Below are positions 2,249 to 57,213 of a DNA stretch of 64,000 nt, piece after piece. A program made the position numbers and the translations under genes. Positions within the stretch are counted from its first letter, which is position 1. Each line of letters starts with the position of its first letter. The notes under the pieces were generated by a model that did no database searches, was not told where the DNA came from, and worked only from the letters and a program-made list of their open reading frames with translations. Origin of the DNA: an uncultured Lachnospiraceae bacterium. Its GTDB lineage: Bacteria; Bacillota; Clostridia; Christensenellales; UBA1242. The DNA lies in contig CAZQMZ010000001.1 in NCBI GenBank assembly GCA_964594865.1, forward strand, positions 82,982-146,981. Reading direction: 5' to 3'.

Positions 2249-2911
2249 ATGAGAAAAAAAATTATGTTGGGGGCGATGATTGCTGTTTTGGGCATTTCAT
2301 TGTTTGGTTGTTCAAGCACTGTGGACTATGTCAGAGAAAACATGAGTGAGTGGACAAAGGTGTATTATTATGGCGCGGGTGAAACATTTTATGTCACCAT
2401 GTCTTCTGGTGTGCGTGAAAGCACATATCTTGTCAATGGGAAGAGTGAAGAGAGTGTTGATTTTGCGCTTCTTTCAATTGTGTTGAGTGAGAATGACGGA
2501 CAGGTGATCAGGGCAACCGTTTCTGTTGACGGTGAAGAAAGTTCGCAAGAGCTTGAAATCAATGGATTGAATAGTGCATATATGGTCGATCTGGAAATTG
2601 AACTCTCCGGCGATGAAGAGATTGTCGTCACATACAACGGCGAGAGTGTGACTCTCAACAACCTATCAAAAGATTTTGCTGTTGATGATGAACGGGCAAT
2701 TGAAATTGCTTCGATTGAACTTGAAGAAGAAATCACGGCATTGAAGTCGGGAGTTACTTTGAATGCGGAGTGCTATCTTCGAGTGCTTGATAAACAAGCA
2801 AACAACTTTGAAGAAGTTTTTTGGTGTTTCACAGTTGTCAACACCAATGGCGAAAGTAGTTCGGTGATAATTTCCACATCCGACGGTTCAGTGTTGGCAA
2901 AGACGGCATAA
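2249..2911 (+). CDS. hypothetical lipoprotein
   Basis: Signal peptide MRKKIMLGAMIAVLGISLFGC with lipobox LFGC; GAGGTG SD; acidic Ser/Glu-rich mature part with no recognisable domain. Confidence 0.6.
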   Translation: MRKKIMLGAMIAVLGISLFGCSSTVDYVRENMSEWTKVYYYGAGETFYVTMSSGVRESTYLVNGKSEESVDFALLSIVLSENDGQVIRATVSVDGEESSQELEINGLNSAYMVDLEIELSGDEEIVVTYNGESVTLNNLSKDFAVDDERAIEIASIELEEEITALKSGVTLNAECYLRVLDKQANNFEEVFWCFTVVNTNGESSSVIISTSDGSVLAKTA

Positions 2912-2933
2912 ACAAAGCAAATTTGCATAAAAA

Positions 2934-2958
2934 AAGCGAAAAATTTCGCTTTTTTTTT
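2934..2958 (+). terminator. rho-independent terminator after the lipoprotein gene
   Basis: Stem AGCGAAA (2935-2941) pairs with TTTCGCT (2944-2950), followed by T8. Confidence 0.7.
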
Positions 2959-3013
2959 GTGTTTTTCTAGAATTTTTCATTTTTTTAAGATCTTTGTCAA
3001 AATTGAAAATTTG

Positions 3014-3043
3014 TTGATTGTGAGAAAGAATTTGTGATATAAT
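3014..3043 (+). promoter_or_regulatory. SigA-type promoter of hflX (apparently leaderless)
   Basis: TTGATT (3014-3019), 18-nt spacer, TGaTATAAT (-10 at 3038-3043). The ATG at 3050 is 7 nt after the last -10 base and there is no SD. Confidence 0.6.
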
Positions 3044-3049
3044 GTTGCT

Positions 3050-4117
3050 ATGAATGTGCAAGAAGAAATAAAGGAAAGAGCGATTGTCTTTTGTCCAATT
3101 GAGAGAGAAAGTGAAAAGCAATATCAATTTGTTGAAATAAGCAGATTGTGTTTTTCTGCGGGGCTGGAAGTGGTTAAGATTTTTTCTCAAAGCATTGACG
3201 CATTCAACAGACGCACAATCATGGGTAAAGGAAAACTTGAAGAAATCAAACAGTTTTTGCGTGAAAATCCTTGCGATGTGCTTGTTGTAGACTTCAAATT
3301 GTCTGGCTCGCAAATGAGAAACATATCCGACGAATTGGGTGTCAAGGTGCTGGACAGGATTCTTCTTATCATCGACATCTTTGCTTTGAATGCAAAGTCA
3401 AGCGAAGGCAAGATTGAAGTTAAGCTTGCACAAAATCGCTATCTTTTGACAAGACTTTCTTCCATACAGGGCTCGTTTGGACGCTTTGGCGGAACGGGTG
3501 TGGGGATGAGAGGACCCGGTGAAACAAAATTGGAACTTGATCGCCGAAAACTTGAAAAAGAAATTTTGACTCTTTCAAAAGAGATTGAAAAAATCAAAAA
3601 TTCTCGTCGTCAAAACAGAGTTTTGAGAGAAAAGAGTGGTATAAAGAGTGTTGTTTTGGGAGGATATACCAACGCTGGCAAGAGTTCAATTTTCAACATT
3701 TTGACAAGGGAAAATATATATGCTGATGACAAACTTTTTGCCACATTGGACACAACAAGTCGCAGAATGTTTTTGGGGGACGGAAACTTTTGCATAATCA
3801 CCGACACTGTTGGGTTTATCAGCAAACTTCCGCACGAACTTGTGGAAAGTTTTTCTTCAACCTTGGAGGAAGTGAAAAATGCCGATCTTGTGTTGCATGT
3901 TGTGGATGTTGCCGACGATTTTTATAAACAAAACATTGAAATAACAAATGAAATTTTGGACGGTTTGGGAGCGACTGAAAATCGAATTGTCATTTTGAAC
4001 AAATGTGACTTGCTTAAAAAACCTGTTGAAATTGAGAAAAATCAAATACTTTTTTCAGCAAAATCTAAGAAAAATCTTGAAAAATTGAAAGAAATAATAA
4101 AAAAAGCGCTTGAATAA
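3050..4117 (+). CDS. hflX: GTPase HflX
   Basis: G1 GGYTNAGKSSIFN, G3 DTVGFI, NKCD, and the HflX N-terminal domain pattern (GKGKLEEIKQFL). Confidence 0.9.
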   Translation: MNVQEEIKERAIVFCPIERESEKQYQFVEISRLCFSAGLEVVKIFSQSIDAFNRRTIMGKGKLEEIKQFLRENPCDVLVVDFKLSGSQMRNISDELGVKVLDRILLIIDIFALNAKSSEGKIEVKLAQNRYLLTRLSSIQGSFGRFGGTGVGMRGPGETKLELDRRKLEKEILTLSKEIEKIKNSRRQNRVLREKSGIKSVVLGGYTNAGKSSIFNILTRENIYADDKLFATLDTTSRRMFLGDGNFCIITDTVGFISKLPHELVESFSSTLEEVKNADLVLHVVDVADDFYKQNIEITNEILDGLGATENRIVILNKCDLLKKPVEIEKNQILFSAKSKKNLEKLKEIIKKALE

Positions 4118-4167: not shown

Positions 4168-4398
4168 TTATTTTTTATTTTCGTTCAGTTTTTTCATTAA
4201 GAAGTCAAGGTCAATGCCATGAACCATCGATGCCTCTTCAATTGTTTCCATTTGGCTTACAGGGCAGGTGACGCAATACATTCCAAAGCCAAGAAAAACT
4301 TCTTCCAAATTTGGATGAGCTTTCAACACTTCTGCAATGGTCATATCTTTTGACAATTCGTCCTTCTTTTTCATATTATTCTCCTTGTTCTTTTTCAA
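4168..4398 (-). CDS. DUF1858 domain protein (hybrid-cluster-associated redox disulfide-like small protein)
   Basis: MTIAEVLKAHPNLEEVFLGFGMYCVTCP...ETIEEA pattern typical of DUF1858; AAGGAG SD. Confidence 0.65.
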   Translation of the reverse strand: MKKNKENNMKKKDELSKDMTIAEVLKAHPNLEEVFLGFGMYCVTCPVSQMETIEEASMVHGIDLDFLMKKLNENKK

Positions 4399-4561: not shown

Positions 4562-5230
4562 GTGGTGAAAAGCGTGGATAAGATTTCAAATATTGTCTTG
4601 ACAAAAAAAGGAAAACGTGTGGGATATGTCTTGGATGTTGCCATAGATTTTGATGACATGCAAATGCAAGGTTTTTATGTTGTCGATGAAGAAAGTGAAG
4701 GAGAGTTTTTGCTTAAATGTGAAGACGTGGTTTCTCAATCGTCTAATTTCATTTTGATTGAAGATGTTGCCGTTTTGGATTTTGTGACAGAAAGAAAAAC
4801 TTGTGTTGGAAAGGAAGTTATGGATGAAAATTGTCAAAGTTATGGAACTTTGAAAGATGTTGTTTTCAAAAAGAAAAAATGCGAAAAGTTCATAACGGAC
4901 AAATGTGAAATTATGGCAAAGTATGTCAAAAACGTCGGTGAAGATTTCATTCTTGTCAACTTCAAAAATGGAAGGACAAAAAAGTCTTTTTCAAAAACTT
5001 TTCCAAAAAGCGACATATTGACGACTGTTGAAATTCAAAAACTTCCAGCTGTGCCAGAGACAATTCTATTGTCGCCAAGTTTCTACTTGGGGAAAATTTC
5101 AAGCGAGGACATCATGGGATATAACAATGAAAAGATAATTCAAAAAGGCGAGGTTGTGACAAGGTTGACAGTTGAGAAAGCAAAGATACACAACAAACTC
5201 AACCAATTGTTTTTTGCTGTCAAGAGATAA
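4562..5230 (+). CDS. PRC-barrel-like domain protein (two YlmC/YmxH-like repeats), hypothetical
   Basis: Two segments resemble PRC-barrel/YlmC repeats (KGKRVGYVLDVAIDFDD.., VGKEVMDENCQSYGTLKDVVF). Start is ambiguous: GTG 4562, or GTG 4574 behind AAGGTGG. Confidence 0.4.
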   Translation: MVKSVDKISNIVLTKKGKRVGYVLDVAIDFDDMQMQGFYVVDEESEGEFLLKCEDVVSQSSNFILIEDVAVLDFVTERKTCVGKEVMDENCQSYGTLKDVVFKKKKCEKFITDKCEIMAKYVKNVGEDFILVNFKNGRTKKSFSKTFPKSDILTTVEIQKLPAVPETILLSPSFYLGKISSEDIMGYNNEKIIQKGEVVTRLTVEKAKIHNKLNQLFFAVKR

Positions 5231-5511: not shown

Positions 5512-8211
5512 ATGGTCAGGGTTATTCCAAGAAGAACAAAAGTTAAATCAGAATTCATCAGGGGCGTCACGGGTTTGGACGTTGTTTTGGCAGTCATTTT
5601 CATTGCAATTGCCATCATTCTTTTTCTTGCCAATTTTGAATTTCACATTTGGATTGGGATTGCATGGTGCATCATTGCCGTTTCCATGTTTTTCAAATTT
5701 GCAGACGAAACACGTTTCTACAACACGTTGATCTTTTTGTTGAGATATTCTGCACAGAAAAAGAGATTTTCCAAAGGGGATGGAAAAAAGAAGAAAAATG
5801 ACATCAAGGAAATGATCGCTTATGATGGTATATATCAAGATCGATTTATCAACTTTGGGCTCTATTATGCTCAGGTTATTGAAATTGAACCTATGTTTTT
5901 CACATTGCTGACGGAATATTATCAAGACAATGTCATTGAAAGTTTCGCCAACGCACTGCGTCGTTTGAATGGAGATCAAACTTGTTCAATTGTCAAGATT
6001 TCAAAGCCAATGATTTTGGATAGATACATACACAACGAAAATGAAAAATATGATGTGCTGTATGATATGCAATATGACGGACAAATTTCTCAAGAAGAAA
6101 TTGACGCTCGTTCGCCAATCTTTGAAGAGAGAGTTTCGCTCTATGAATTCATGAACCGTCAAGCAAAAATTTTCAAAGAACATTTCTATTTGGTTGTATA
6201 TGACAAAGATCGCGAAATTTTGGAAAACACCACTTCCGGTATGATTTCTGCCATGGCAGCTTCTTTAAACCCAATTTCTTCTCACTTGGTTACGGGCAAC
6301 GAGCTTGTTGTCTTTTTGAGATCCAACCTTGGCAAAGACTTTGATGAGCGCGACTTGGAAATTACACCGATTTCTGAACATATCAATTGGGCAACCCCAG
6401 ACAAAATTCGCTTCAACATTGCAAGATATTTTATCGATGACAATTGTTATCGTTGCTTCAACTTGGTAGATTATCCACTTCAAGTGGGAAATGCTTGGGG
6501 CGCGCAATTCTTCCTTTTGGATCGAACAAAAGTTGTCATGAAGTTCAATCCAATTGCAAAAACGGATTCTGAACGACAAATCGACAGGGCTATCATGGAA
6601 ATGGAAACCAAACTTTATAAGGCGGGCAGAAGCTCCACTCAAATTGAATTGCAAACACACGTGCAAACTCTTCGAGATCTTCTTCAAAGTTTGAAAAACA
6701 ACAACCAACAACTTTTCAATGTCAACACTTTCTTGGTTGCCGAAGATGCTGTCAAAAAGGATGTCAGAGCTATGCTCAAACAGCAAGGGTTCAAATATTC
6801 CGAACTGTTTTCAAGACAAATTGACGGATTTGTTTCTTCCAACATTTCAAGAAAAGATTCAGTCAAGAGCAGTTTGAGAGGTATTCCAACCAGCACTTTG
6901 GCAGCAACATTTCCGTTCATTTCCAATTCTTTGCAAGATAAAAATGGCATCTATTTGGGAGATAATGAATATCCTGTTTTCGTTGACTTTTTCAAACGTG
7001 ATCGCGAAAGGGTCAACTCCAATATGATGGTCATTGGTAAGTCTGGTTCGGGAAAGAGTTACGCCACCAAGACACTTTTGACAAATCTTGCTGCCGACAA
7101 CTGCAAAATTTTCATTCTTGACCCAGAAAACGAATATCAAGATCTGACAAGAAACTTGGGCGGCAAGTTCATTGACGTTGGTTCTTCCATCCACGGAATT
7201 ATCAATCCATTTCACGTCATCTCTTCTTTGGAGGCATCGGAAGATGAAGAACAGGAGGAAGAGGAAGAAGAATTTGATGATTTTGGACGTCCGATTCAAA
7301 AGAAAAAGATTGTGCAAACATCAATTGATGACTCTTTTTCACAGCATTTGCAATTTTTGGAACAGTTTTTCAGAGTTATCTTGGAAGGCATCAATGCAGA
7401 CGCTTTCGAAGTGCTCAACTCACTGATTATTGATGTCTATAAAGAAAAGAAAATTGACTATCGCACCAATCTTGCACAGTTGAAACCGGAAGACTATCCA
7501 ACATTTGACTCACTCTATGATTTGATTTTACGCAGAATCAAGGAAGCAAAAGATGAGTTTTCTCTCAGAAATTTGATGACCGTGGAAACATATATCAAAA
7601 AATTTGCTACAGGCGGAAGAAACAGTGCACTTTGGAATGGTCCAACCAGCATTGAAACAAACGAAAATTTTGTTACATTCAACTTTCAATCACTTGTTGC
7701 GGGAAACAATGCTCAACTGACCAACGCGCAAATGCTTTTGGTGTTCAGATATTTGAACAACGAAATCATAAACAACAAAGATTTCAACAAGAAATATCGC
7801 AAAAACAGAAAAATTATTGTTGCGGTGGATGAAGCACACATTTTCATCAATCCAAAATATCCAATCGCATTGGATTTCATGGCTCAAATGGCAAAACGTA
7901 TCAGAAAATATGGCGGAATGCAAATCATCATCACGCAAAACATTTCTGACTTTGTGGGTTCTGAAGACATCAAACGTCAATCCACGGCGGTTATTAATGC
8001 TTGTCAATATTCTCTGATCTTCTCACTTTCACCAAGCGATATCAACGACTTGGTTGAACTATATTCCAAGTCGGGTGGAATCAATGAAGAAGAACAGAAC
8101 TCTATTGTCACAGCGGGTGTTGGTCAAGCCTTTTTGATCACCGGTCCAACATCGAGAACCACCGTGCAAATCATCGCGCAAGATTATGTGAAACAACTTT
8201 TTGGAGGTTGA
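5512..8211 (+). CDS. VirB4-family (TrsE/PrgJ/TcpF-like) secretion ATPase with an N-terminal PrgI/VirB3-like two-helix membrane module
   Basis: Walker A MVIGKSGSGKSYATKTLL, then ILDPENEYQDL...GG.FI...INPF, Walker B IIVAVDEAHIF, and RKYGGMQIIITQNISDF. N-terminus has two hydrophobic helices (GLDVVLAVIFIAIAIILFLANF; IWIGIAWCIIAVSMFF). GAGAGG SD before ATG 5512. Confidence 0.8.
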   Translation: MVRVIPRRTKVKSEFIRGVTGLDVVLAVIFIAIAIILFLANFEFHIWIGIAWCIIAVSMFFKFADETRFYNTLIFLLRYSAQKKRFSKGDGKKKKNDIKEMIAYDGIYQDRFINFGLYYAQVIEIEPMFFTLLTEYYQDNVIESFANALRRLNGDQTCSIVKISKPMILDRYIHNENEKYDVLYDMQYDGQISQEEIDARSPIFEERVSLYEFMNRQAKIFKEHFYLVVYDKDREILENTTSGMISAMAASLNPISSHLVTGNELVVFLRSNLGKDFDERDLEITPISEHINWATPDKIRFNIARYFIDDNCYRCFNLVDYPLQVGNAWGAQFFLLDRTKVVMKFNPIAKTDSERQIDRAIMEMETKLYKAGRSSTQIELQTHVQTLRDLLQSLKNNNQQLFNVNTFLVAEDAVKKDVRAMLKQQGFKYSELFSRQIDGFVSSNISRKDSVKSSLRGIPTSTLAATFPFISNSLQDKNGIYLGDNEYPVFVDFFKRDRERVNSNMMVIGKSGSGKSYATKTLLTNLAADNCKIFILDPENEYQDLTRNLGGKFIDVGSSIHGIINPFHVISSLEASEDEEQEEEEEEFDDFGRPIQKKKIVQTSIDDSFSQHLQFLEQFFRVILEGINADAFEVLNSLIIDVYKEKKIDYRTNLAQLKPEDYPTFDSLYDLILRRIKEAKDEFSLRNLMTVETYIKKFATGGRNSALWNGPTSIETNENFVTFNFQSLVAGNNAQLTNAQMLLVFRYLNNEIINNKDFNKKYRKNRKIIVAVDEAHIFINPKYPIALDFMAQMAKRIRKYGGMQIIITQNISDFVGSEDIKRQSTAVINACQYSLIFSLSPSDINDLVELYSKSGGINEEEQNSIVTAGVGQAFLITGPTSRTTVQIIAQDYVKQLFGG

Positions 8212-8246
8212 TTCGAAACATTTAAATCAAACAAAAAAGGAAGCTT

Positions 8247-11200
8247 ATGACAAAAGTTTTAAAGAACATTTTAATAAGTTTGCTGGGTGCATTCATGTTT
8301 ATGTTTGCAGGTATCTTTTTTGTTGGATGCGGAAGTGTGGATTATTCAAAAATCAAGATTGTTTCCAATGTCGAAGGCAGTGTGGTGTTGGGAGTTGGTG
8401 AAAGCGTGACAATCACTTTCACAATTGAAGGATATCAAAGCGGGTTCAATAATCAAGTTTCGTTGAGTGGACAAGATGAAGTGTTTACATATTCCGAGCC
8501 AAACTATTCATCCTCTGATTCTTCTCAATTCACTGTGACTGTCACGGGTGTTGCTGGTGGAACGGGAACACTTTTGGTCACTTCGGTTGAAGGCCAAAAA
8601 CAATGTGAAGTTGACATTTCTGTTGAACAGTCAACCACTTCAATTTCTTCAAACAATGAAATTCTTTATGTTACAAACGGAACAGATTTTGTTCCGAATT
8701 ACAGCATGTTCACTTTCGATCCAAACACAACAGACAGAGATTTGTCATATTATTTTGTCGTGCTGAGTGAAATAAGTGACACTGATTATGCCTCATTCTT
8801 CTTGAAATACAATCTTGTTGGCATTGATGCTGAAAATGGCATTGGATATTTCAACGATGACTCTTCAAGTGATCCAATTGAACGCCCGATATATCAGTTT
8901 GAAAGTGTGACTTTGGACGAAAATGGAAATTTGTTTTTGATTTATGATGGACAATCGACGTCAATTGACTTGCAAAGCGAGTTTGAATTTATGGCGGTTT
9001 ATGACAGTTCGGTTGGCTCTGAAAATATCTTGTTTGCTCATGCCACAGTCTATGTTCTTCCAAGTTTGTCCGCAACAGTGACGGGAGGATATTTGCAAAC
9101 TGACGGAACTGTTGAATTTGAAAGTGTTTTGGATGAAATTGTCATTGTTCCTGAAAGCTCATATCTTTCAAAATATTTAATTCGTGTGGAAATGAACAAC
9201 ATTGACAGCGATTTTGACATCATTTTCACACCGACAATTTCAAATGACAATGTGTCAATCACTCGATATTATTATAATGACGACGATTCGGACACAAACA
9301 TTCTCTATTTTCTTATATCTCAAAATGTTATAGTCAGCTCTTCGACAGATTTTTCTTTAAATATCTATTACAGTGTTGCGCAAGACATTGCAGATGAAAA
9401 TGTAAATTTTAATGTTGATTTCAGTATTTCAACTCAAATTGCACCGACAAAAATCACAATCAATGAAACCTTGGTGCAGAATGAGATGGCATTGACTTTA
9501 TATCACAACGCTCTTGAAGGTTATGGTTGGGAAGAAATTCGCGTTGACATCCTTTCCGATTGTGGAACAGAACCAAACTATGATGGAATATATCTGGTCT
9601 TTGACGAAAATTTGGTTGAAGTGCTCTATAACAACGTCAACATTTCAAGTGGAGAAATCATAGATGACATTTCAGTGTCAATTTATGTTCGTGGAAAGGG
9701 TTCTCAAGCCACAGAAACAAGTATAAGGGTCTATGTTTCAAGTTCAATCACAAACAGTACAGATTGGGCGCAAGAGTGGGATGAAGAACGAGAAGATGGT
9801 TATATTGAAATTCCTTGCTCAATTATAAGTGCTCCAACAACAATTCTTGTTGACGCAACCTATAACATAGGCGAGTTGTATGTCAGCTACACCGGCGGGA
9901 CTGTAAGTTTTGATGAACAATTATACACCGAAGCTATGTTCAAATCAGCCACCATCACTTTTTCAAGCGGCACCGATGTTGTGAACATTTCAACAAATTC
10001 TTCCACACCTTACGTATATGCCGATGGAAGATATTATCTCAATCTTACGGTCACTCCAAAGGCGGTTGGAATGGGAAGATATATCGTCACTCTCGACACA
10101 GGAGCAACACTTGTGATCACTTTCCAAAGTGTGCAGGTGCTTGAAAGTGAAAGTATAAGTGTGGCGCTGACAAACGAAGATAATGACAATGTTCGTGCAT
10201 ATTCACTAAGTCGAACATCGGGCTCAGAGTTTGATAATGTCATAAATCTTGAGATTCAAAACACATATTCAAATGGTTCAATTTCTTATGGAAGCACGGC
10301 AAGTTTTGTCATTTCTGGAAATTACACCAGTCTCATTTCTTCCGGTGTTAGTGGAGTGGTGAGAGTTTTGCAAAGCGATTCAACTTTCAGATTGACAACA
10401 ATAACGGACGGTGACACATATTTTTTGATTGAAATTTCAGGATATAGCATCCATGATTTTGGTTACACAATGGTTTCCTATTTTGTTTATGTGTATGTGA
10501 GTTCTTATTCTCTTGTTAACGAATATAGCTTGCGAAGTGAAGGGGAAACGGTTTTGAGCACCACTCTTTATTATGGCACAGACACATATTCTTCGGTGCA
10601 ATATTCTGCGTATGTCGACAACACAGATGCAAAAAATTTCCTTCAGTTGACGTTCACGACAAGTGGATTGCGAGAAATCTTTGGAAGCAATGACGAAACA
10701 TTTCTCATCACAAAAGCAAAGGAGTATGACAACTATTACACTCAAGAGTTGGTGTATCAAACATATGACAGCAAATATGTCTATTTCTATGTTCTTGACA
10801 GTGAAGGAAATGCTTTGACAAGAACAACCACAACTGTGAGTTTTTATATCAATAATGTATTGCAAAAGACTGTCACTTTGAGTTTTGATAATGGACTTAT
10901 GTTCTATTCCGATGTAATGAGTTTTGAATATCAAATTGAAGATCAAACATACACAGTCACAGCACAATTTTCAAATGTGTTCAGTTTGGTGGGTGGCTAC
11001 GGCACTTTTGACGTCACAACTTTCACATACACCAACACCTATTCCTCTGCTTATACCTTTGTTTTGAGGTCGCTTTTGAGCCAGAGAAATCTCACAAAGA
11101 GATATGATGTTCGCATTTCAGTCAGCAGATTCCAATCCGTTGAAAACATCTCTCTTCTTTCAAGTGAAACAGAAATAAATTTCACAAATGAAACTTTGAC

Positions 11201-14200
11201 AGCGTCATTCATTGTCACACTCTATCCAACCACTGCAACCAACATCAACGTTGCTCCAAGAGTGGACTTCATTAGCTCGAACGGAAATCCTTACAGCAAC
11301 ATGGTGACATCCACAGTCACTTCTTTGGGAAATGGACAATTTTTGATAACACTCTCTTGCGAGTCTTTCTATCAAGCAAATATGTCAGACATAACAAACA
11401 TTGACGACGACACACCTCTTTCCGGAACGATTTATATTTATCCTTCCGAGTGGGGAGATTCCATTTCTTCAATCGACTCTGGACTCAGTCCAATTATCCT
11501 TTCGGTGCGATATCGAAATGGTTCGGCGGCAAACCCATATCTTTTGGAAAGTGCGGAAGATGTGCTTGCCATAAACTCCAACGAAACCACACTTCAAAGT
11601 CACTATGAAATCAGTTCAGTGATTGATATGTCAAGTGTGACAAGTGCAACTCCAATCGGCATCATTGTGAACGGAAGTCAATATTCAATCGTGGGGTTTA
11701 GTGGTTCCATTGTGGGCTCAACTTCTCAGGCGGCAATCACCAACATCAATATAACAGACTCCAATTTCACTTCAAGTGGATATTCTGGACTTTTTGCCAT
11801 AATAAATGAAGGCGCAAGCATTGAAAATGTTTCCATAACAGGCACAATCAACTTTTCAAATGCAATCGCTTCGGGGGCGTACATCGGACTTTTGACGGCA
11901 ATAAACTATGGAACACTTGAGAATGTTGGGGTTACGATAAACAGCAGTTCAAGCGAATATAACTTGTCTGTTTCAAGCGGCGGACAGCTCTATTTTGGTG
12001 GACTTGTTGGCATAAACATCGGCTCAATCATACAAGATTTCAGTTTGTTTGAAAGCTCTGGCTTGACATCCAAAAATTTGGCTTATTTCAACGATTATCT
12101 CAACATTTCTGTCAGTGGTTCGGCACTCATCTATGTCGGCGGAGTGGCAGGGGCTTCTTTGGGAGTTATTGAAAGAATTTCGCCGTCTTCATCTTATAAA
12201 CTATATGGTTACACCGGATATTCGGCATATACGCTCATAAATGTTGTGGGCTCAACTTCGGGCACAATCAATGTCGGTGGAATTGTTGGATATGCGACAT
12301 ATAATCTTTTCAATAGTGGAATTACAAGTGGAAACACACTTTCCAACCTTCTTGTTGGTGGTGAGATTTCCACTATGGGTGTTTCATTATCTTCTTCGGG
12401 TTCGGACAGAGTTGGTGGAATTGCAGGACTTGTGGACACATTGAACTCGTCAACCATAAACATTGAAGATAACACTTCTCGCGTTTTCCTTCGTGGAAAT
12501 GCTTATGTTGGTGGAATTGTTGGCTATGACACATATCCATCTGCCCAAGGTGGCTATGATCAGCAAAATTTGACCACTTTTGGCGAAGGAAACATCATTC
12601 AGGCGGTGGACGATGCCAGAGGTGCGTTCTATTCGGCGAGCATAATCAGAACATCCTTGATTTCTTCAACTGTGGAAACGGAAAGCAGGGACGAAAGTTT
12701 TTATCAATTTTATTACGCAATCGGAAACTACAAAACTTCGGAAAATGAACGCACATACACTGACACATCTTTCTCCGCTTATTCATATTTGACGCGTGAT
12801 CCAATAAATTATTCCGAAGGTGGCAGCTTGGATTTTACAAGCACTGACAAATATTATGGTGACTATCTCGTTGTCGACGCGGAAGATTTTGAAATTGTTT
12901 ATGCATATTTCTTTGATGAAGATGAAGATTATGCCGGAGTTGTGGTTGGCAACAGTGGATTCAGTTTGACAGGGGAAGATTCATCAATCTATGCTTATTT
13001 GCTCTTCTATTTCCAAGTGACTGACGATTTGTCGGGTTCTTTGGGTTCGGCGGCACAAGAAAACATTGTTGGATTGAATTATTTCACACCAAACTCTCAA
13101 TTCTATCCATTTGTGTTGGACAGCCAAGATGTCAGCATTTCAGCTTCAACTTCTTCGATTTTGTCCATTGATTCAAACGGAAACATGACGGTCAGTGGAA
13201 CGGGATATGCCGAAATTTCTCTTTCAAGCATACTCAATGTCAACGATTCACAAAAGATATATATTTATGTGGTAAATTATTTTGACAACACCGTCCAAAC
13301 TTCAATTTTCTATGATTCGCCATCTCACAGCGGTTCAAATATAACAGGCGGAAAGAGAATTATTTATGGCAATTCTTCTTCCAGCGTTTATGTTGTGCCA
13401 ACATACACTTTGAGTGGCGGACAAGATTCTGACGGCGTGTCCTTCACAATAACCGAAGCCGGCATTTTGCAATATAAGGGCGTGAGCTATTTCCTTGCTA
13501 AAAACACGCAAATCACTGCCAATGTTGAGAATGTGTCATATTTGCAATATTCCACTGATTATTTTGTCAAATATGCAGATTTGACTGATGAAGGTGGGAT
13601 AAGATACATCAATAGTGTTGAGGTCACAGAGGGTGAAAGTGGCTATGCTGTGGATGAAGATGGAAATTATTACGTCTATGTCGGTGGAGAATACATCAAA
13701 GTTGACATTGATGGATATAAATTGGATGAAAACGGCAACAAAGTTTTGATCAATTTCTCGAGTGTTCAAGTGAGCAAACAAACAATCTCGTTCTATAAAA
13801 CAAGCTCATCAACCAATGCGGGAGACACAGACATATACACTCTTGTGCCGGTGCTTCAAGTTGTCATCAATGGACAAACTTTCACTTATGTTTTGTCTGG
13901 CTCTGCAATCACTTTGACGTTGGAATATCAAGAAACGGCAACGGAAATCAACAGCAAACACACAACAAATTCACTGCAAACAAACACTTCTTTTGAAGAA
14001 ACAATTTCCATCACTTCTTCAAATCAACAAGACTATTTGTTCTATTACATCACTGGTCCAAGTCGTGAATATATTCAAAGCAGAATGCCGAGTGTGGTTG
14101 GAATTTATTATGACAATTTTGGAGAACAGACTGATTATGAAACCTACATGAACTCATATTCTTCGGCCGATTTGTTTATAATCAAAATCACAAGACAAGA

Positions 14201-17200
14201 AGGCACAAATGTTTTTGATTTGAAATGTTCAATAAACACTGACAGCACACTATATAAAAACCGATTCAGCGAAAATATTTATGGCGAATATATTTTCACA
14301 TTCTATGCAAGTGAACTTGAAGACGGTGTTGAATGTTATTTCAGAGTCTTTTTGGATGAGGCAACTTTGGAATATGTGAGTGTGAACAACTATTCCAACA
14401 TAAACGATGCTTCACAAACTGATGAGGTGATTGTTCCTTCTCAACGTGGACTTTTGGAAATCATTCTTGACCCAACTGAAGCCTCATTCAACAGTTTGAC
14501 AATTTCAAACAACAGCATAAACAGTCTTGACGGAGCAGGAATTGCCACATTCACTTTTGTATATTCCACAGAATCAGACTATGTTTTGGCAACGAATGTT
14601 GGAACTTATTCCGACGGAGCTTTGACCTTGACATATGAAGAAATCATAAGTTTCTATGAATATTTAAATGAGCAGAATTCTGAAATTTCATATTCATACA
14701 ACGGTCGAATTTACGTTGCATATTATCTCGCTTCAAACGGCGTGGATGACAATGTTGACATCAAATTTGATGTGACGATTGACTATGGCTCAAATGGCGA
14801 TGTTTATCAAACATCTTTGGCTTTGGTGACAAAGTTGACGAATTATATCAGTGTTGAATTTGAAGGCAAAGATCTCATCAACAACAAATATTATGTTGCG
14901 CGTGGACTTTCATACAACCTGACTCTAAATTCTTTTGGCTTCACCACCGAGCAGTTGAACAACATAACCTATGAAATCTCCGATGACAGCCTTGTCTCTT
15001 TGCAATCTAATGGAGTGAGTGGTTATGTGCTCACTATCACAAGCGACAGAATCACATATTCCAGCAGTGAGGAAGGGCGCGAGGTGACAATCCATTTCAC
15101 CGCAGAAAAGACGGTTGACGACGAAACGGTGACTTGTGAATATACTTTGACGTTCTATATCATGGAATATGTTCTCAATTATCAATATGTTGAAGGTGTC
15201 TTTGAAGATGTTGTCTATGGAATGAGTGACGGAGTGATCAGTGTTGCCATTGGAAATCCATACACTCTTCAATTCGACATAACTGATTTCATGGAATACA
15301 ACTCTTCTGACTCGGAAATTGTGGCAGAAGTGAACACTTTCCTGGACAGTATGACTCAAAACATAACCTGGAAAGTGTATGAAGGAGGGCAGGAATATAC
15401 TCTTGAACAAAACAGGTCTATAAGTTCGGATTATTATCAAATCTCGTCCTTCACAGTCACTCCAATTCAACTTTATGACCCAACAAGTGAGATATATTAT
15501 TTCTCTGCCGAAGCGTATTACACCATGAGTGGTGGAATATATTCATATACCGAACTTTTGAACAATCGAATTTACACAGAATTTTCTTTCAGTGTGCACA
15601 ATCAAAGCACACAAGAAAGTCCAATTCCAATCAGGACATATGAAGAATTTATTGCAATGGAAGAAGATTCTTGGTATATCCTTTTGGATGACATAACCTT
15701 GCCAAATTCCACTGAAACCGAACAATTCACACCAATATCCACTGCAATTGCCGGACTTGATGGAAATGGGTATTCTATCTATTTCAGCGGAACATATAAT
15801 TTCGACACCGCGAGCGTTGGTGTGTTCAGCACGGTGAGCTCTGACACGATTTTGCAAAATGTTACTGTTGAACTTCTTTCCAACACCACTTTCAACATGA
15901 GTGTTTCCACCTTTGAAGTCGGGCTTTTGGCAGCGATAAACAACGGGATAATCACAAACTGTGAAGTGGGCTCGATTGGAACAGCAAGTTTGTCTGTTTT
16001 ATATTCAATCAGTGTTTCTTCTTCATATGTTGCAGGTTTGGTTGCCGAAAACAATGGATATATCACAAATTCACGTTCAACAGTCAGCACCATTTACACT
16101 CAGGTCAACATTGCAGGCTTTGTTGCTGAAAATTATGGACACATTGCAAGCTCTTATTTCCGCGGAGGCAGTCTTGTCAGTGTGACACAAGGCACAGCAA
16201 ACATTGCTGGATTTGTGTTGACCAACTCAGGTGAAATTTACACTTCCTATGTGAGCGGTGAAAGTTCAAACAATGCAAACTCAATGTATTACACCGGCAC
16301 GGACAACGGGATTCGTTCCAGCAGTGCTATTGCCGGATTTGTCTTCTCCAACAGTGGCGCTGTTTATGATTGTTATTCCAACATTCTCTTGACCAACACC
16401 GGTTACAACGCTTCCGGTTTTGTTGATGAAAACACGGGCCGTATTGAACGGTGCTTCTCAATCAGTGTGCTTGGAGATGATGACTCTTCAAACTATGGCT
16501 TTGTGAGAATCAATGACATTGATGATGAAGAAGACGGAATTGTTGATTGCTATTATCTCTCCGATTCTGAGTTGATGGTCAACCAAAATGTCACCAACAA
16601 CTATAGTGAAGTCGAAGTGTTGACAGAGGAAGATTTCGCCAATATCGACGAATATTTCTCAAACTATGTCGTTGCCGATGGACGTGACATCAACTCTGTT
16701 TGGTTCTTCAACGACAATGCTTCTGACACATCCAATTTCAATGGCAAAGAATTCAATATTGGACGAATTGAACTTGTTTCAGCCAACGTTGTGGCATATT
16801 CAAGAAGAGTATATGATCATGCCGAAACAGTGACGGTGACTGACACATCAACAGGGACGTCAGTGACATATGTGGAATATGTATACACCTATGCAAGCGA
16901 CGGCTATGCTCTTGGTTCGACATATAATCCAATTTTAATAAGCAGTGCAGAAGAGTTTGAAACATACATCGCACAAGAGTGCAATTCGGCGGGATATAAC
17001 TATTCTTATTACAGATTCATCAGCGACATTGATTATTCTGACTATCTGTATAACAGTTCTCTCTATACCACCAAATTTGTTGGATATTTGGAAGGTAACT
17101 TCATGACTTTGAGCAACATTACGTTGATTTCAAGCAGTTCGTCTTTGACCTATGCGGGACTCTTTGCCGAAATTGGCAATTCTTCCAATGTCAGCGCCAT

Positions 17201-18569
17201 TGGCACGGTGATGAATTTCACATACATTCCAGCAGAAGTCAACTTTGCGTCAGCAAATGTTGTCGGGGCGCTTGCTGGAAGATTGAATGGGGGCACGATC
17301 TATAACATCTATATCGAAGACGGCGAAGGCAACACCATCACCGGAAACAACATTGTCGGTGGTGTGGTTGGTTTGACAACAGGTGAGTTTAGCATAAAAA
17401 ATGTCTATTCCACATACAACACAATTGCAAGAAACAGTTTGGTATCTCAAAGTAATGATTTTATCACCGGCACGACATCATATTCCAACTATTCTTTCGC
17501 CGGAGTAATTGTCGGTGTGCTCAGCGGAACAGGAACGATTTATAACACCAAAATTGACACTGTTGTTTCCTCAATTGCTGACAAAGCCGGTTTGATGTTT
17601 GGGCTTATTGACACCAACGCAACTGTCTATAACGCAGAATTGGAAGTGCAAAGTGACATGTTGTTGAATGGATATTCATATGCCGGTTTGGTGGCTGGTG
17701 AAAGCCGAGGAACTGTCATAAATGTTTCCATCACTGGAAGTGGCACGTTCACGAATTTCAGGACTTCACCATATGTTGCAACGGCGGTTGGAGGCTTTGC
17801 TGGACTTGTCAGCGGTGGAACTTTGACGAACATCAAAATGGAAGAGAACATTTCAATAAGCACAGAAAGCACCGAGAGTGCCATTGAAAATTTGGGTGGA
17901 ATTGCCGGCATGATCACTGCTTCTGTCACAATGGAAAACATCGAAGTGAATGCCGACATCACAGGCTTTTCTGCCGTGGGCGGAGTTGTTGGATATATCA
18001 ACAATCAAAGTGGCGGTTATGTGACATTCAGAAATGTTTCTGTGGAAGGAACTTTCAGTGCAATCGGCATCAAACAAACTGTTGTGGCTGTTGGTGGACT
18101 TGCTGGACGTGTGGCCACGAGCACACAAATATATTTGACTTCCACATATGTCGAAGAGGCCTACAACACAAACACCTTTGACATTGATGTATTGGCTGGA
18201 ACATATAACTATGGCACCACTACGTCAATCGGAGTTGGCGGTCTGATTGGACTGAACGAAAGCACATATTCACACATTGTTGAATATGCAATTGTTTCAT
18301 TGACCGGAGAAGCATATATGTATGATTTGTCCTATTCAAACGCATCTGAAACAACTGAAACAATTTCAACAAATGGAGGCGTTTTAACTTCGACATCATT
18401 GCGTGAAGGTGAGATTATTGGCATTGTGACAAACAATTACAGTGCCACAGGCTCCACATATGACTGCAATTTGTCATATTCTTTCACCTATGTGGAAGGT
18501 GAAAATGACATAAGTACGGCTGTTTGTCAAATTTTGGTGAATTTCTTTGGAGCTATTGCAACCGCATAA
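8247..18569 (+). CDS. giant (3,440 aa) surface lipoprotein with an N-terminal Ig-like region and three GLUG-motif/beta-helix-like modules
   Basis: Uninterrupted 10.3-kb ORF 35 nt after the ATPase gene. Signal and lipobox MTKVLKNILISLLGAFMFMFAGIFFVGC. First domain is Big_2-like (VGESVTITF...GTGTLLVTS). Repeated xVGGIVGY / IAGFVxxNxGxI motifs lie at about nt 11520-12700, 15610-16600 and 16920-18300. No LPXTG motif and no C-terminal TM helix. Confidence 0.85.
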   Translation: MTKVLKNILISLLGAFMFMFAGIFFVGCGSVDYSKIKIVSNVEGSVVLGVGESVTITFTIEGYQSGFNNQVSLSGQDEVFTYSEPNYSSSDSSQFTVTVTGVAGGTGTLLVTSVEGQKQCEVDISVEQSTTSISSNNEILYVTNGTDFVPNYSMFTFDPNTTDRDLSYYFVVLSEISDTDYASFFLKYNLVGIDAENGIGYFNDDSSSDPIERPIYQFESVTLDENGNLFLIYDGQSTSIDLQSEFEFMAVYDSSVGSENILFAHATVYVLPSLSATVTGGYLQTDGTVEFESVLDEIVIVPESSYLSKYLIRVEMNNIDSDFDIIFTPTISNDNVSITRYYYNDDDSDTNILYFLISQNVIVSSSTDFSLNIYYSVAQDIADENVNFNVDFSISTQIAPTKITINETLVQNEMALTLYHNALEGYGWEEIRVDILSDCGTEPNYDGIYLVFDENLVEVLYNNVNISSGEIIDDISVSIYVRGKGSQATETSIRVYVSSSITNSTDWAQEWDEEREDGYIEIPCSIISAPTTILVDATYNIGELYVSYTGGTVSFDEQLYTEAMFKSATITFSSGTDVVNISTNSSTPYVYADGRYYLNLTVTPKAVGMGRYIVTLDTGATLVITFQSVQVLESESISVALTNEDNDNVRAYSLSRTSGSEFDNVINLEIQNTYSNGSISYGSTASFVISGNYTSLISSGVSGVVRVLQSDSTFRLTTITDGDTYFLIEISGYSIHDFGYTMVSYFVYVYVSSYSLVNEYSLRSEGETVLSTTLYYGTDTYSSVQYSAYVDNTDAKNFLQLTFTTSGLREIFGSNDETFLITKAKEYDNYYTQELVYQTYDSKYVYFYVLDSEGNALTRTTTTVSFYINNVLQKTVTLSFDNGLMFYSDVMSFEYQIEDQTYTVTAQFSNVFSLVGGYGTFDVTTFTYTNTYSSAYTFVLRSLLSQRNLTKRYDVRISVSRFQSVENISLLSSETEINFTNETLTASFIVTLYPTTATNINVAPRVDFISSNGNPYSNMVTSTVTSLGNGQFLITLSCESFYQANMSDITNIDDDTPLSGTIYIYPSEWGDSISSIDSGLSPIILSVRYRNGSAANPYLLESAEDVLAINSNETTLQSHYEISSVIDMSSVTSATPIGIIVNGSQYSIVGFSGSIVGSTSQAAITNINITDSNFTSSGYSGLFAIINEGASIENVSITGTINFSNAIASGAYIGLLTAINYGTLENVGVTINSSSSEYNLSVSSGGQLYFGGLVGINIGSIIQDFSLFESSGLTSKNLAYFNDYLNISVSGSALIYVGGVAGASLGVIERISPSSSYKLYGYTGYSAYTLINVVGSTSGTINVGGIVGYATYNLFNSGITSGNTLSNLLVGGEISTMGVSLSSSGSDRVGGIAGLVDTLNSSTINIEDNTSRVFLRGNAYVGGIVGYDTYPSAQGGYDQQNLTTFGEGNIIQAVDDARGAFYSASIIRTSLISSTVETESRDESFYQFYYAIGNYKTSENERTYTDTSFSAYSYLTRDPINYSEGGSLDFTSTDKYYGDYLVVDAEDFEIVYAYFFDEDEDYAGVVVGNSGFSLTGEDSSIYAYLLFYFQVTDDLSGSLGSAAQENIVGLNYFTPNSQFYPFVLDSQDVSISASTSSILSIDSNGNMTVSGTGYAEISLSSILNVNDSQKIYIYVVNYFDNTVQTSIFYDSPSHSGSNITGGKRIIYGNSSSSVYVVPTYTLSGGQDSDGVSFTITEAGILQYKGVSYFLAKNTQITANVENVSYLQYSTDYFVKYADLTDEGGIRYINSVEVTEGESGYAVDEDGNYYVYVGGEYIKVDIDGYKLDENGNKVLINFSSVQVSKQTISFYKTSSSTNAGDTDIYTLVPVLQVVINGQTFTYVLSGSAITLTLEYQETATEINSKHTTNSLQTNTSFEETISITSSNQQDYLFYYITGPSREYIQSRMPSVVGIYYDNFGEQTDYETYMNSYSSADLFIIKITRQEGTNVFDLKCSINTDSTLYKNRFSENIYGEYIFTFYASELEDGVECYFRVFLDEATLEYVSVNNYSNINDASQTDEVIVPSQRGLLEIILDPTEASFNSLTISNNSINSLDGAGIATFTFVYSTESDYVLATNVGTYSDGALTLTYEEIISFYEYLNEQNSEISYSYNGRIYVAYYLASNGVDDNVDIKFDVTIDYGSNGDVYQTSLALVTKLTNYISVEFEGKDLINNKYYVARGLSYNLTLNSFGFTTEQLNNITYEISDDSLVSLQSNGVSGYVLTITSDRITYSSSEEGREVTIHFTAEKTVDDETVTCEYTLTFYIMEYVLNYQYVEGVFEDVVYGMSDGVISVAIGNPYTLQFDITDFMEYNSSDSEIVAEVNTFLDSMTQNITWKVYEGGQEYTLEQNRSISSDYYQISSFTVTPIQLYDPTSEIYYFSAEAYYTMSGGIYSYTELLNNRIYTEFSFSVHNQSTQESPIPIRTYEEFIAMEEDSWYILLDDITLPNSTETEQFTPISTAIAGLDGNGYSIYFSGTYNFDTASVGVFSTVSSDTILQNVTVELLSNTTFNMSVSTFEVGLLAAINNGIITNCEVGSIGTASLSVLYSISVSSSYVAGLVAENNGYITNSRSTVSTIYTQVNIAGFVAENYGHIASSYFRGGSLVSVTQGTANIAGFVLTNSGEIYTSYVSGESSNNANSMYYTGTDNGIRSSSAIAGFVFSNSGAVYDCYSNILLTNTGYNASGFVDENTGRIERCFSISVLGDDDSSNYGFVRINDIDDEEDGIVDCYYLSDSELMVNQNVTNNYSEVEVLTEEDFANIDEYFSNYVVADGRDINSVWFFNDNASDTSNFNGKEFNIGRIELVSANVVAYSRRVYDHAETVTVTDTSTGTSVTYVEYVYTYASDGYALGSTYNPILISSAEEFETYIAQECNSAGYNYSYYRFISDIDYSDYLYNSSLYTTKFVGYLEGNFMTLSNITLISSSSSLTYAGLFAEIGNSSNVSAIGTVMNFTYIPAEVNFASANVVGALAGRLNGGTIYNIYIEDGEGNTITGNNIVGGVVGLTTGEFSIKNVYSTYNTIARNSLVSQSNDFITGTTSYSNYSFAGVIVGVLSGTGTIYNTKIDTVVSSIADKAGLMFGLIDTNATVYNAELEVQSDMLLNGYSYAGLVAGESRGTVINVSITGSGTFTNFRTSPYVATAVGGFAGLVSGGTLTNIKMEENISISTESTESAIENLGGIAGMITASVTMENIEVNADITGFSAVGGVVGYINNQSGGYVTFRNVSVEGTFSAIGIKQTVVAVGGLAGRVATSTQIYLTSTYVEEAYNTNTFDIDVLAGTYNYGTTTSIGVGGLIGLNESTYSHIVEYAIVSLTGEAYMYDLSYSNASETTETISTNGGVLTSTSLREGEIIGIVTNNYSATGSTYDCNLSYSFTYVEGENDISTAVCQILVNFFGAIATA

Positions 18570-18683: not shown

Positions 18684-18712
18684 TTGACATTTTGACGTAT
18701 ATTTGTTATAAT
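18684..18712 (+). promoter_or_regulatory. candidate SigA-type promoter P2 upstream of rpoB
   Basis: Consensus TTGACA (18684-18689), 17-nt spacer, TGtTATAAT (-10 at 18707-18712). Confidence 0.7.
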
Positions 18713-32158: not shown

Positions 32159-32380
32159 AATTTATCTCCTAACTAATTATAAACCAAATAAAAAAAATTG
32201 TCTATAAAAATAGAGAATTAGATTGAAAATTTTACAAAAATAGCAGTAATTTTCTATATAGAATATATTATACAATATATCAGTTTTCAATTTTTTGTAA
32301 AAAAGTCATTGTTTTTTAACATAAAAAACTTGACAAATGAAGATAAATATAATATGATTTTAGTGGGAGAAAAGATATTT

Positions 32381-32902
32381 ATGAATAAAGAGAAAGGATA
32401 TATTAATGCTATAGATTTAGCAAAGTATATAAATAAAAAATATAAAGAAAAGTTCAAAAGTGATATATCAAGTATAAAACTGCAAAAATCTCTTTATTTT
32501 TTATTTGCATATTGGGGAGGATTTGTTAAAGAACTTCAAACAAAGAAAGGTGAAGGTTTGATTGAAACGGAAGATGCAAATTATAAACAATATCTTTTTG
32601 ATAATAGAATTGAAGCATGGATTTATGGACCTGTTATTACTGATGTTTACCATAAATTTGACTCTGTAAGAAAATACGATAAAGAAGCAGAAAAAAAGAT
32701 TAATGAGTTACCTATAGAAGTCAAATCTTTCATAGATGATTTACTTGATGATATATTTAAAGTAAGTGATTTTAAGTTAGTAGATTTAAGTCATAATGAT
32801 AATTGTTGGAAGAAGAATTTTATAGAAGATGACAAGAAACATAATCGAGAAATTTTAAAAGAAGATATAATAGATGAATATTCTAAACGGAAATTTATTT
32901 AA
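32381..32902 (+). CDS. Panacea/DUF4065 (SocA/GepA-like) domain protein, putative PanA-type antitoxin
   Basis: Motifs ISSIKLQKSLYFLFAYWGGF and RIEAWIYGPVITDVYHKF match the DUF4065 pattern (..KLQKLLY.....G...F...I.AW..GPV....Y..). Start set at ATG 32381 behind GGGAGAAAAG. Confidence 0.7.
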   Translation: MNKEKGYINAIDLAKYINKKYKEKFKSDISSIKLQKSLYFLFAYWGGFVKELQTKKGEGLIETEDANYKQYLFDNRIEAWIYGPVITDVYHKFDSVRKYDKEAEKKINELPIEVKSFIDDLLDDIFKVSDFKLVDLSHNDNCWKKNFIEDDKKHNREILKEDIIDEYSKRKFI

Positions 32903-39889: not shown

Positions 39890-40037
39890 AATTCTCCTCC
39901 GCATATTATGACAAAAGTCAGTCGTCTATCTCATTCTAACATATATATTTAAGAATTTCCAAACATTTTTTTATAAATTCAATAATATTTAAAAATTTTT
40001 AAGTATTTTTGCACATAATATGTTCAAGGAGATGCGT

Positions 40038-57100: not shown

Positions 57101-57213
57101 GCACAAAGTTCACTCTTCTTGAAAGTAAAAAAATCGCAATTTCCGACCGATTGAGCACAGGAAAAGAAGAAATAAAGAGAAAATTTTTGGGTGTATACAA
57201 CTATGAAGATTGA
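54148..57213 (+). CDS. gyrA: type IIA topoisomerase subunit A (GyrA-like; ParC-type function not excluded) with an N-terminal low-complexity extension of about 230 aa
   Basis: Core from about aa 236: [60 protein letters not shown] (catalytic Tyr). The C-terminal beta-pinwheel shows no obvious QRRGGKG GyrA box. Confidence 0.8.

Follow-up and report, generated by a model that had tools for sequence, protein, structure and literature searches.

What use does a gut bacterium with a genome of about 1 Mb have for a single gene of 10.3 kb? The question is raised by a stretch of 64,000 nucleotides from an uncultured Lachnospiraceae bacterium of the GTDB group UBA1242 (assembly GCA_964594865.1, contig CAZQMZ010000001.1, positions 82,982 to 146,981 of the forward strand; this whole stretch is called the window below). 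Here, one open reading frame (ORF) at 8247-18569 on the plus strand, 3,440 codons long and taking up ~1% of the genome, encodes a giant lipoprotein that ends in ...QILVNFFGAIATA. We found that this is a genuine, single intact gene, that its product combines a conserved lipid-anchor motif with an immunoglobulin (Ig)-like domain and three homologous beta-helix modules, and that the gene follows that of an exceptionally conserved VirB4-type ATPase in every sampled relative. Our leading answer, held tentatively and at somewhat less than an even chance, is that the giant is the adhesin arm of a co-opted conjugation-type contact apparatus.

Is the ORF one gene at all? The initial annotation of this locus had named frameshifts and assembly errors as one possible refutation. 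This objection fails, because a residue-for-residue identical protein is encoded on a contig of an independent Logan assembly (run SRR7039256) and because collinear, uninterrupted ORFs recur across the related loci. A scan of species-representative genomes with the upstream ATPase gave 36 close loci, and wherever the sequence past the ATPase is long enough, an uninterrupted ORF of >3,200 codons begins 16-260 nt past the ATPase; the single seeming exception is interrupted merely by a run of 10 N, a scaffold gap. Each orthologue ORF opens with a lipoprotein signal, all N-termini carrying [FL]-x-[GAS]-C, and the order of ATPase and then giant is kept in ~35 species-level genomes as well as in a distant clade. 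The predicted product has ~370 kDa, is acidic (pI 4.05) and is predicted to be beta-rich. Neither tandem nor long direct DNA repeats were detected within the gene or ahead of it, and we hence reject a recent duplication or shuffling of modules, which had been suggested for checking; a homopolymer-type phase-variation signal is likewise lacking in and before the gene.

How widespread is such a protein? An exhaustive HMMER search with aa 1430-2450 against 1.84 billion representatives returned 71 proteins, 61 of them at E <= 1e-30. Nearly all of these 61 measure 3,300-3,800 aa and align at the equal relative position, while the remaining matches are shorter or fragmentary proteins, none of which is recognisably another protein family. 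The giant homologues split into two clades (38-47% versus 27-34% identical), and a collinear giant is found in 53 cluster representatives; the window protein is itself the representative of its own cluster in the protein collection. The giant therefore belongs to an undescribed and unnamed family of giant lipoproteins that comprises at least 53 clusters and is built from known kinds of parts. Farther homologues on short contigs from metagenomes and metagenome-assembled genomes appear as two adjacent or overlapping ORFs (L003, 1-9616, 2,165 and 1,033 aa; L004, 2-6962, 1,422 and 899 aa), and these splits are probably frameshift or assembly errors of those contigs. On L003, QueH and other genes lie 3' of the giant homologue, not rpoB. 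Several other searches recovered little. A metagenome scan with the N-terminus of the distant clade gave no matches, and one with a module-1 alignment failed, the alignment being too divergent, while a scan with the ATPase alignment worked. A word-indexed protein search missed the giant's own entry and all full-length orthologues; with the C-terminal 1,000 aa it gave five fragments, and with an alignment of the N region no matches. Giant low-complexity proteins can escape word-indexed searching, and it was the exhaustive search of representatives that recovered the family.

How is the protein held at the cell? Its first 27 residues form a predicted signal peptide that leads into the lipobox F-V-G-C with Cys28 (8247..8330; all features given here lie on the plus strand). 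The N-terminus, MTKVLKNILISLLGAFMFMFAGIFFVGC, has lysines at positions 3 and 6, a hydrophobic core of 18-20 residues and an FFVGC lipobox ending at Cys28, and so contains all elements of a signal peptidase II substrate (charged n-region, h-region and [LVIF]-x-[GAS]-C within ~35 aa). Cys28 is kept in at least 92% of the 53 full-length relatives. The lipoprotein signal proposed in the initial annotation is thus borne out, as is, for two of the three other window lipoproteins that it named, the shared lipobox style (LFGC in 2249-2911 and 36992-38461). Neither lgt nor lspA occurs among the scanned ORFs of the window. At the other end, the Ser/Thr-rich tail of aa 3336-3440 with the stop codon (18252..18569) is variable and has no sorting signal. 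No LP.[TSA]G (LPXTG-like) motif occurs anywhere in the protein, and Pfam shows no SLH, CWB2 or choline-binding match for the whole protein, its tiles or, for the wall-anchor families, the orthologue tiles. There is no second hydrophobic segment either, the last 19 aa being marginal (mean 1.65 on the Kyte-Doolittle scale), in agreement with the earlier claim that a wall anchor and a C-terminal membrane element are absent. Among the 53 relatives the C-termini vary in length and sequence and have only a short clade-specific end motif in common; some relatives contain further lineage-specific insertions, such as a long coiled-coil-like EEE/K-rich block near the C-terminus of P0150.

What would such an anchor display? 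The recognisable repeat motifs are confined to three stretches. Module 1 (aa 1092-1426, 11520..12524) opens with NPYLLESAED, its NPY at aa 1096 (nt 11532), and continues with five VGG(I/L/V)(V/A)G coils. Module 2 (aa 2455-2770, 15609..16556) is entered through PIPIRTYEEF...LDGNGY at ~aa 2459, followed by xAGFVxxNxGxI coils. Module 3 (aa 2890-3335, 16914..18251) opens with NPILISSAEE, its NPI at aa 2894 (nt 16926), and has VGG/GGxxG coils. Between the last two lies a cap or linker with a conserved SVWF...GRxELV (aa 2771-2889, 16557..16913). The initial annotation had assigned NPY/NPI entries and both kinds of repeat to all three; the three confined stretches stand, but the entry of module 2 is a different one and the motifs are unevenly distributed, since all nine GG[ILV][VA]G motifs fall within modules 1 and 3 and all three IAGFV motifs within module 2. 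When the orthologue alignments were compared using hhalign, module 1 matched module 3 (1092-1426 against 2890-3249) with a probability P of 98% and E 3e-14 and module 2 (aa 1058-1308 against 2427-2633) with P 97.7% and E 1e-12; modules 2 and 3 matched with P ~90%. On this sequence evidence the three modules are mutually homologous. A profile-profile comparison over the whole protein revealed no internal repeat besides them.

Do the modules belong to the GLUG repeats, as had been claimed? In the window sequence alone, Pfam GLUG (PF07581, gathering threshold 20.5 bits) stays below threshold in the tiles of module 1 (17.8 bits) and module 3 (18.5 bits), with nothing in the tiles of module 2 and no match for the whole protein. 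Significance comes instead through the orthologues, the family profile and structure. Seven of 90 orthologue tiles match GLUG (best E 1.5e-6), and a profile of 24 full-length relatives from both clades matches, within module 3, the PDB entry 3n6z (E 4e-7), which is named 'putative immunoglobulin A1 protease'. Whole-protein scans of Pfam and NCBIfam gave nothing, tiles and orthologues being needed for a signal; phmmer of the whole protein against PDB was equally empty, and profiles from close orthologues only (A2-A4) gave no matches, the signal arising only with the profile that spans both clades. We then have the AlphaFold2 model of aa 2241-3440, run with four partial homologues, in which the predicted local distance difference test (pLDDT) averages 54 overall. 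Module 2 (aa 2460-2770) reaches mostly 70-90, with regular strands of three to five residues in a beta-helix pattern, and module 3 (aa 2890-3280) mostly 70-88 with the same strand pattern, while confidence is low in the cap/linker. Foldseek against PDB places the beta-helices of the S. pneumoniae and G. haemolysans IgA1 proteases on top (6xja, 7uvk, 7uvl, 7jgj; probability 1.0); PL6 lyases, Ag43, phage tailspikes and tailspike depolymerases and polygalacturonases follow far lower, the enzyme matches at 0.04-0.38. A viral library agrees and includes a phage 'putative IgA1 protease'. Modules 2 and 3 are hence modelled as GLUG-type right-handed beta-helices, and module 1 is tied to this fold through its hhalign match to module 3. 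The picture of three separate GLUG-type modules is thus supported.

Are these modules heads on an Ig-like stalk? The protein indeed begins with an Ig-like beta-sandwich at aa 29-135 (8331..8651). A profile of this segment from 40 relatives matches, along almost its entire length, an Ig-like domain of the S-layer protein SbsC (E 4e-6), and the full-length profile finds the same match at E 8e-4. The assignment as 'Big_2-like' is therefore right at the level of the fold but not specific for Big_2: the sole weak Pfam match of the window segment is Big_9 (E 0.06), and among the first domains of 40 orthologues Big_2 appears in two (best 0.0011), alongside Big_3_5, Big_9, Big_1 and Big_12. Beyond these ~107 residues, the N region (aa 136-1091, 8652..11519), the least conserved part, gives no Pfam, PDB or repeat signal; its single-sequence AlphaFold model is mostly beta and unreliable (mean pLDDT 37). 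A second region of this kind, aa 1427-2454 (12525..15608), lies between modules 1 and 2. It is restricted to the giant family: it has no Pfam or PDB match, and its clear homologues among the 1.84 billion representatives are giant orthologues only. It contains an insertion at aa ~1751-1850 (nt ~13497-13796) rich in D/E/G/Y (…YAVDEDGNYYVYVGGEYIKVDIDGYKLDENGNK…) that is missing in most orthologues (occupancy 0.33-0.49). Together, aa 136-1091 and 1427-2454 amount to ~2,000 aa without Pfam, NCBIfam or PDB signal and without internal repeats. Because no family, repeat or usable fold is seen there, an Ig-like stalk stays unproven beyond aa 29-135. Moreover, since the second large region separates module 1 from module 2, the three modules lie at intervals down the chain and do not cluster as heads on a stalk.

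Does the giant bind or catalyse? Ser, Thr, Tyr and Asn make up 34-42% of it; the richness noted earlier is present but extends along the whole protein and is not limited to the first 1,050 aa. Among the 53 relatives, 207 positions are conserved in at least 92%, of which 76 are Gly, 24 Tyr, 24 Asn, 19 Phe and 11 Pro. There is no conserved His or Lys and no conserved acidic cluster among them, and Cys is conserved only at the lipobox and at C2768. W2819, R2840, E2842 and L2843 are conserved in the cap/linker, and what little Asp, Glu and Arg is conserved falls within entry or cap motifs (DGNG, EGN, GRxELV). The protein has 11 His in total, none of them conserved, and no HExxH. Since the conserved residues are nearly all fold-forming (Gly, Asn, Tyr, Phe, Pro) and the surfaces variable, binding appears likelier than catalysis and is the giant's most likely job. 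Of the two functions that had been considered possible, adhesion thus gains, and the enzymatic one finds no support in these conservation patterns. An M26 IgA1-specific metalloprotease is rejected on the missing HExxH, the lack of conserved His and the score of Peptidase_M26_N, 12.3 bits against a cut-off of 27.7. We also dismissed an extreme depletion of lysine as a special feature: the giant has 1.4% Lys, its orthologues 1.1-6.4%, and other lipoproteins of the window are Lys-poor as well. Indeed, the exported proteins here are Lys-poor and acidic in general (3.6-3.9% K and pI 4.1 in the lipoproteins at 2249-2911 and 36992-38461, versus ~10% K in cytoplasmic proteins).

To which system could a binding protein of this size belong? 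Directly upstream lies the gene of an ATPase of 899 aa (5512..8211), with two N-terminal membrane helices (~aa 18-62) and the Walker A motif GKSGSGKS. Over residues 5-897 it matches the NCBIfam family NF045975, 'Mbov_0397 family ICE element conjugal transfer ATPase' (ICE, integrative and conjugative element), at E 1e-173 with 579 bits, slightly below the equivalog cut-off of 590; the C-terminal domain of VirB4 in PDB 4ag5 is matched at E 2e-46, and the Pfam matches are P-loop_TraG and DUF87. Judged from these matches, the ATPase is of the VirB3/VirB4 type and closest to the VirB4 family of mycoplasma ICEs. FtsK/SpoIIIE and EssC of the type VII secretion system were considered and rejected at 28 and 11.5 bits versus the 579 bits for VirB4. 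The ATPase also carries an acidic run, EDEEQEEEEEEFDD, at aa 577-590.

The pair is tightly spaced and unequally conserved. In the window, 35 nt separate the ATPase stop from the ATG of the giant, including a Shine-Dalgarno-like AAGGAAG 3 nt before that ATG (8237..8243), and no promoter- or terminator-like site was seen between the two genes. Consensus-grade promoter matches occur at 4350-4379 (11/12) and, before rpoB, at 18684-18712. The former precedes a gene for a PRC-barrel/YlmC-like protein of 222 aa (4562..5230; Pfam PRC E 1e-6; NCBIfam YlmC/YmxH, a sporulation-associated family, E 2e-5, below cut-off), which lies 5' of the ATPase in all related loci and is possibly the first gene of a transcription unit with the ATPase and the giant. 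Among 27-29 loci, the median identity to the window is 85% for VirB4, 81% for HflX, 67% for the aldolase, 53% for a 220-aa lipoprotein and 48% for the PRC-like protein; for the giant it is 34% in the N region, 44% in module 1, 40% in the middle region and 51% in modules 2 and 3. The ATPase retains 74-92% identity among close relatives and still 69% in the distant clade, where it again stands directly before the giant, which is ~25-39% identical there; HflX (54%) and the aldolase (55-60%) fall lower than the ATPase in that clade. To be more conserved than a housekeeping GTPase such as HflX or an aldolase is unusual for a 'conjugation' gene. By these identities, the constraint on the ATPase is unusually strong, while the giant drifts in the manner of other proteins of the non-core or surface kind. 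A 'hyper-fast evolution' of the giant gene is accordingly rejected, and since it diverges like its non-core neighbours, divergence alone is no argument for an arms-race interface.

How might the pair work? The giant would be exported by the Sec system, lipid-modified at Cys28 and retained on the outer face of the membrane. The chain of Ig-like domain, ~950 family-specific aa, beta-helix, ~1,030 further family-specific aa, two beta-helices and variable tail could then form a long contact fibre that crosses the wall and projects past it, its beta-helix modules offering the surfaces for binding. Because the pairing with an exceptionally conserved VirB3/VirB4-type ATPase is invariable and the lineage, at ~1 Mb, is predicted to be partner-dependent, we propose the pair to be a remnant of a Gram-positive conjugation-type (MPF-FATA) apparatus that is re-used for cell-to-cell contact. 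The lipoprotein would take an adhesin role like that of PrgB or of CDS14 of mycoplasma ICEs in mating-pair formation, and the ATPase may power assembly or transfer at the contact site. In the wider sense, the giant is probably the cell-contact fibre of UBA1242-type, tiny-genome gut Clostridia. A bolder version, which we consider unlikely, would make the two-part remnant of VirB3/VirB4 motor and lipid-anchored fibre the core contact, and possibly uptake, organelle of UBA1242, with ~2,000 fibre residues of undescribed folds or functions.

Several points weigh against this co-opted conjugation apparatus. Among the ~30 ORFs of the window that were scanned (a few small ORFs were left out), there is no VirD4, VirB6/PrgH, VirB8-like protein, cell-wall hydrolase or relaxase, and in the relatives no other component of a type IV secretion system (T4SS) occurs in the 10 kb flanking the pair; a complete MPF-FATA T4SS or conjugation system at this locus is thereby rejected. 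The signal is a normal Sec/signal peptidase II one, so export of the lipoprotein needs no T4SS. In small genomes with little rearrangement, conserved neighbours can stay together without being functionally linked, and the giant diverges about as fast as the 220-aa lipoprotein and the PRC-like protein. Finally, ~2,000 aa without an assignable fold leave room for a hidden enzymatic or other domain.

The best-surviving alternative, in our view rather unlikely, is a stand-alone adhesin directed against the animal host or its digesta (mucus, IgA, glycans), with no link to VirB4 and an adjacency that reflects inherited gene order. The evidence from anchor, fold and conservation fits it equally, every relative was sampled from an animal or human gut, the best-known GLUG beta-helices are those of streptococcal surface proteins directed at the host (PMC7695701), and the lack of further T4SS genes nearby is as expected. 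Yet in both deep clades the two genes remain neighbours, whereas the other flanking genes vary: FBA and RadC are missing from several related loci, and extra ORFs are inserted in others. The short intergenic gap without a promoter-like site also speaks for the pair, and a super-conserved VirB4 on its own requires a partner of some kind.

A structural surface coat, S-layer-like or as an envelope scaffold of a wall-bearing minimal cell, seems improbable to us. The likeness of the N-terminal domain to SbsC, the acidic, Cys- and Lys-poor composition, the large coding investment and the presence in all sampled relatives would agree with it. But that likeness extends over ~3% of the chain, whose surfaces vary; an SLH or CWB2 anchor is absent, and typical S-layer subunits are far smaller than 3,440 aa. 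We give scarcely more than slight odds to a surface-displayed enzyme, in which one or more modules, or an unassigned region, would nourish the cell as a protease or as a polysaccharide lyase or hydrolase. Such an activity would suit an organism that lacks biosynthesis and must scavenge (PMC12306168), and the lyases, depolymerases and polygalacturonases listed by Foldseek point the same way, as does the faint Peptidase_M26_N similarity. Those enzyme matches, however, stand far behind the probability of 1.0 for the non-catalytic beta-helix of IgA1 protease, which is a substrate gate and not the catalytic domain (PMC7695701), and the conserved residues described above offer neither HExxH nor a conserved His, their Asp, Glu and Arg belonging to entry and cap motifs. 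A polymorphic contact-dependent toxin is highly improbable: the C-terminal ~100 aa are indeed the most variable part and differ in length among relatives, but this short, Ser/Thr-rich tail closes with a clade-specific motif that is conserved, the gene behind it is not one for immunity but rpoB, which has a strong promoter of its own, and no toxin family matches the whole protein, its tiles or the orthologue tiles.

In which cells would the co-opted contact apparatus that we favour occur? The relatives go under the labels uncultured Clostridia, Christensenella or Ca. Caccovivens, and their source is in all cases animal or human gut. Ca. Caccovivens corresponds to the GTDB genus UBA11517, family UBA1242, Christensenellales, with a type genome of 1.1 Mb and 34% GC (PMC8035907). 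UBA1242 is common in human and livestock guts; its genomes of 0.67-1.6 Mb are without amino-acid, nucleotide and lipid biosynthesis and standard transporters, and its members have been proposed as obligate symbionts or parasites of other cells, while their means of obtaining nutrients are unexplained (PMC12306168). The same study mentions neither the giant gene nor the ATPase. As the giant takes up ~1% of the genome, occurs in all relatives sampled and goes together with virB4, the best-conserved gene of its neighbourhood, it is a concrete candidate for an attachment or exchange device. For annotation, the giant lipoprotein family is now defined and its recognisable parts are located.

The rest of the window is ordinary core genome (RadC, aldolase, HflX, rpoB, rpoC, MurG, gyrB/A, LeuRS), with a few features of its own. 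With its Peptidase_M1 domain (E 6e-25), the lipoprotein at 36992-38461 is a predicted surface aminopeptidase, in a cell for which peptide transporters are said to be missing. A Ku homologue (E 7e-46) and a protein with a SocA/Panacea antitoxin domain, at 40020-40841 and 32309-32902, are found in this strongly reduced genome, and the stretch at 32-34 kb has a GC content of just 26%. The GyrA ORF (54148-57213) encodes 1,021 aa with the topoisomerase domain starting from residue 260, which reflects a long, acidic extension at the N-terminus or else an ORF that was called too long.

How does the giant compare with known systems? With the M26 IgA1 metalloproteases (S. pneumoniae ZmpA/IgA1P, 6XJA/6XJB; G. 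haemolysans, 7UVK) and with 3N6Z it shares the right-handed beta-helix with G-G-x-x-G / N-x-G-x-I coils, the 'NP(Y/I)xIxxxE(D/E)' entry segment and the nature of a large Firmicute surface protein. Unlike them, it has no M26 catalytic domain or HExxH, three modules versus one and a lipid anchor in place of LPXTG or an N-terminal transmembrane segment, and ~60% of its length has no counterpart there. With SbsC of Geobacillus (4UID/4UIC) the likeness is a single-domain match over aa 29-135, and the giant is without the S-layer anchoring or lattice-forming architecture of that protein. Gram-positive conjugation adhesins such as PrgB (aggregation substance, pCF10) resemble it as very large, beta-rich or repetitive surface fibres for contact, and the giant adhesins Ebh, SiiE and LapA are likewise very large surface fibres that mediate cell-cell or cell-surface contact. 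Adhesins of the PrgB, Ebh, SiiE and LapA type are anchored through LPXTG and sortase, retention by a type I secretion system or transmembrane segments and consist mostly of tandem Ig-like repeats, whereas the giant is lipid-anchored and shows no tandem DNA or protein repeats outside its three modules.

Closer in logic are the mycoplasma elements ICEA and ICEB (CDS17/TraE with CDS14), which pair a VirB4 with a lipid-anchored surface protein and whose ATPase family is the one matched here over its full length near threshold. CDS14 is small and the giant lipoprotein far larger, and the likeness of the two is one of role. In mycoplasma, the surface lipoprotein CDS14 promotes or initiates the contact of donor and recipient alongside the VirB4 homologue CDS17 (PMC6030558). 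Different from these mobile elements, the pair described here keeps a fixed chromosomal place between housekeeping genes in all relatives sampled, and the scanned ORFs of the window include no recombinase, VirD4 or further ICE genes near it.

The lifestyle finds its counterpart in the Patescibacteria, in which a chromosomal, relaxase-less, monoderm-type MPF-FATA T4SS is essential for the epibiotic growth of Ca. Southlakia epibionticum; Gram-positive T4SSs in general rely on surface adhesins instead of pili (bioRxiv 10.1101/2025.01.22.634366). Both lineages hold a monoderm-type VirB4, chromosomally fixed and apparently co-opted from conjugation, in reduced-genome, partner-dependent cells, and a VirB4 from Saccharibacteria is a distant match of the window ATPase (24% identity). 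The clusters of these bacteria of the candidate phyla radiation usually keep VirB3, VirB6 and a TrsD-like protein near virB4 and show no VirB3-VirB4 fusions or adhesins (bioRxiv 10.1101/2025.01.22.634366), whereas the window ATPase brings its own N-terminal membrane segment and has the giant lipoprotein as the only conserved partner seen. In the bolder version of our reading, UBA1242 would be a Firmicute lineage that converged on the partner-dependent lifestyle of the Patescibacteria. If our reading is true, the re-use of conjugation machinery for obligate partner dependence, until now argued for the Patescibacteria, would extend to Firmicutes.

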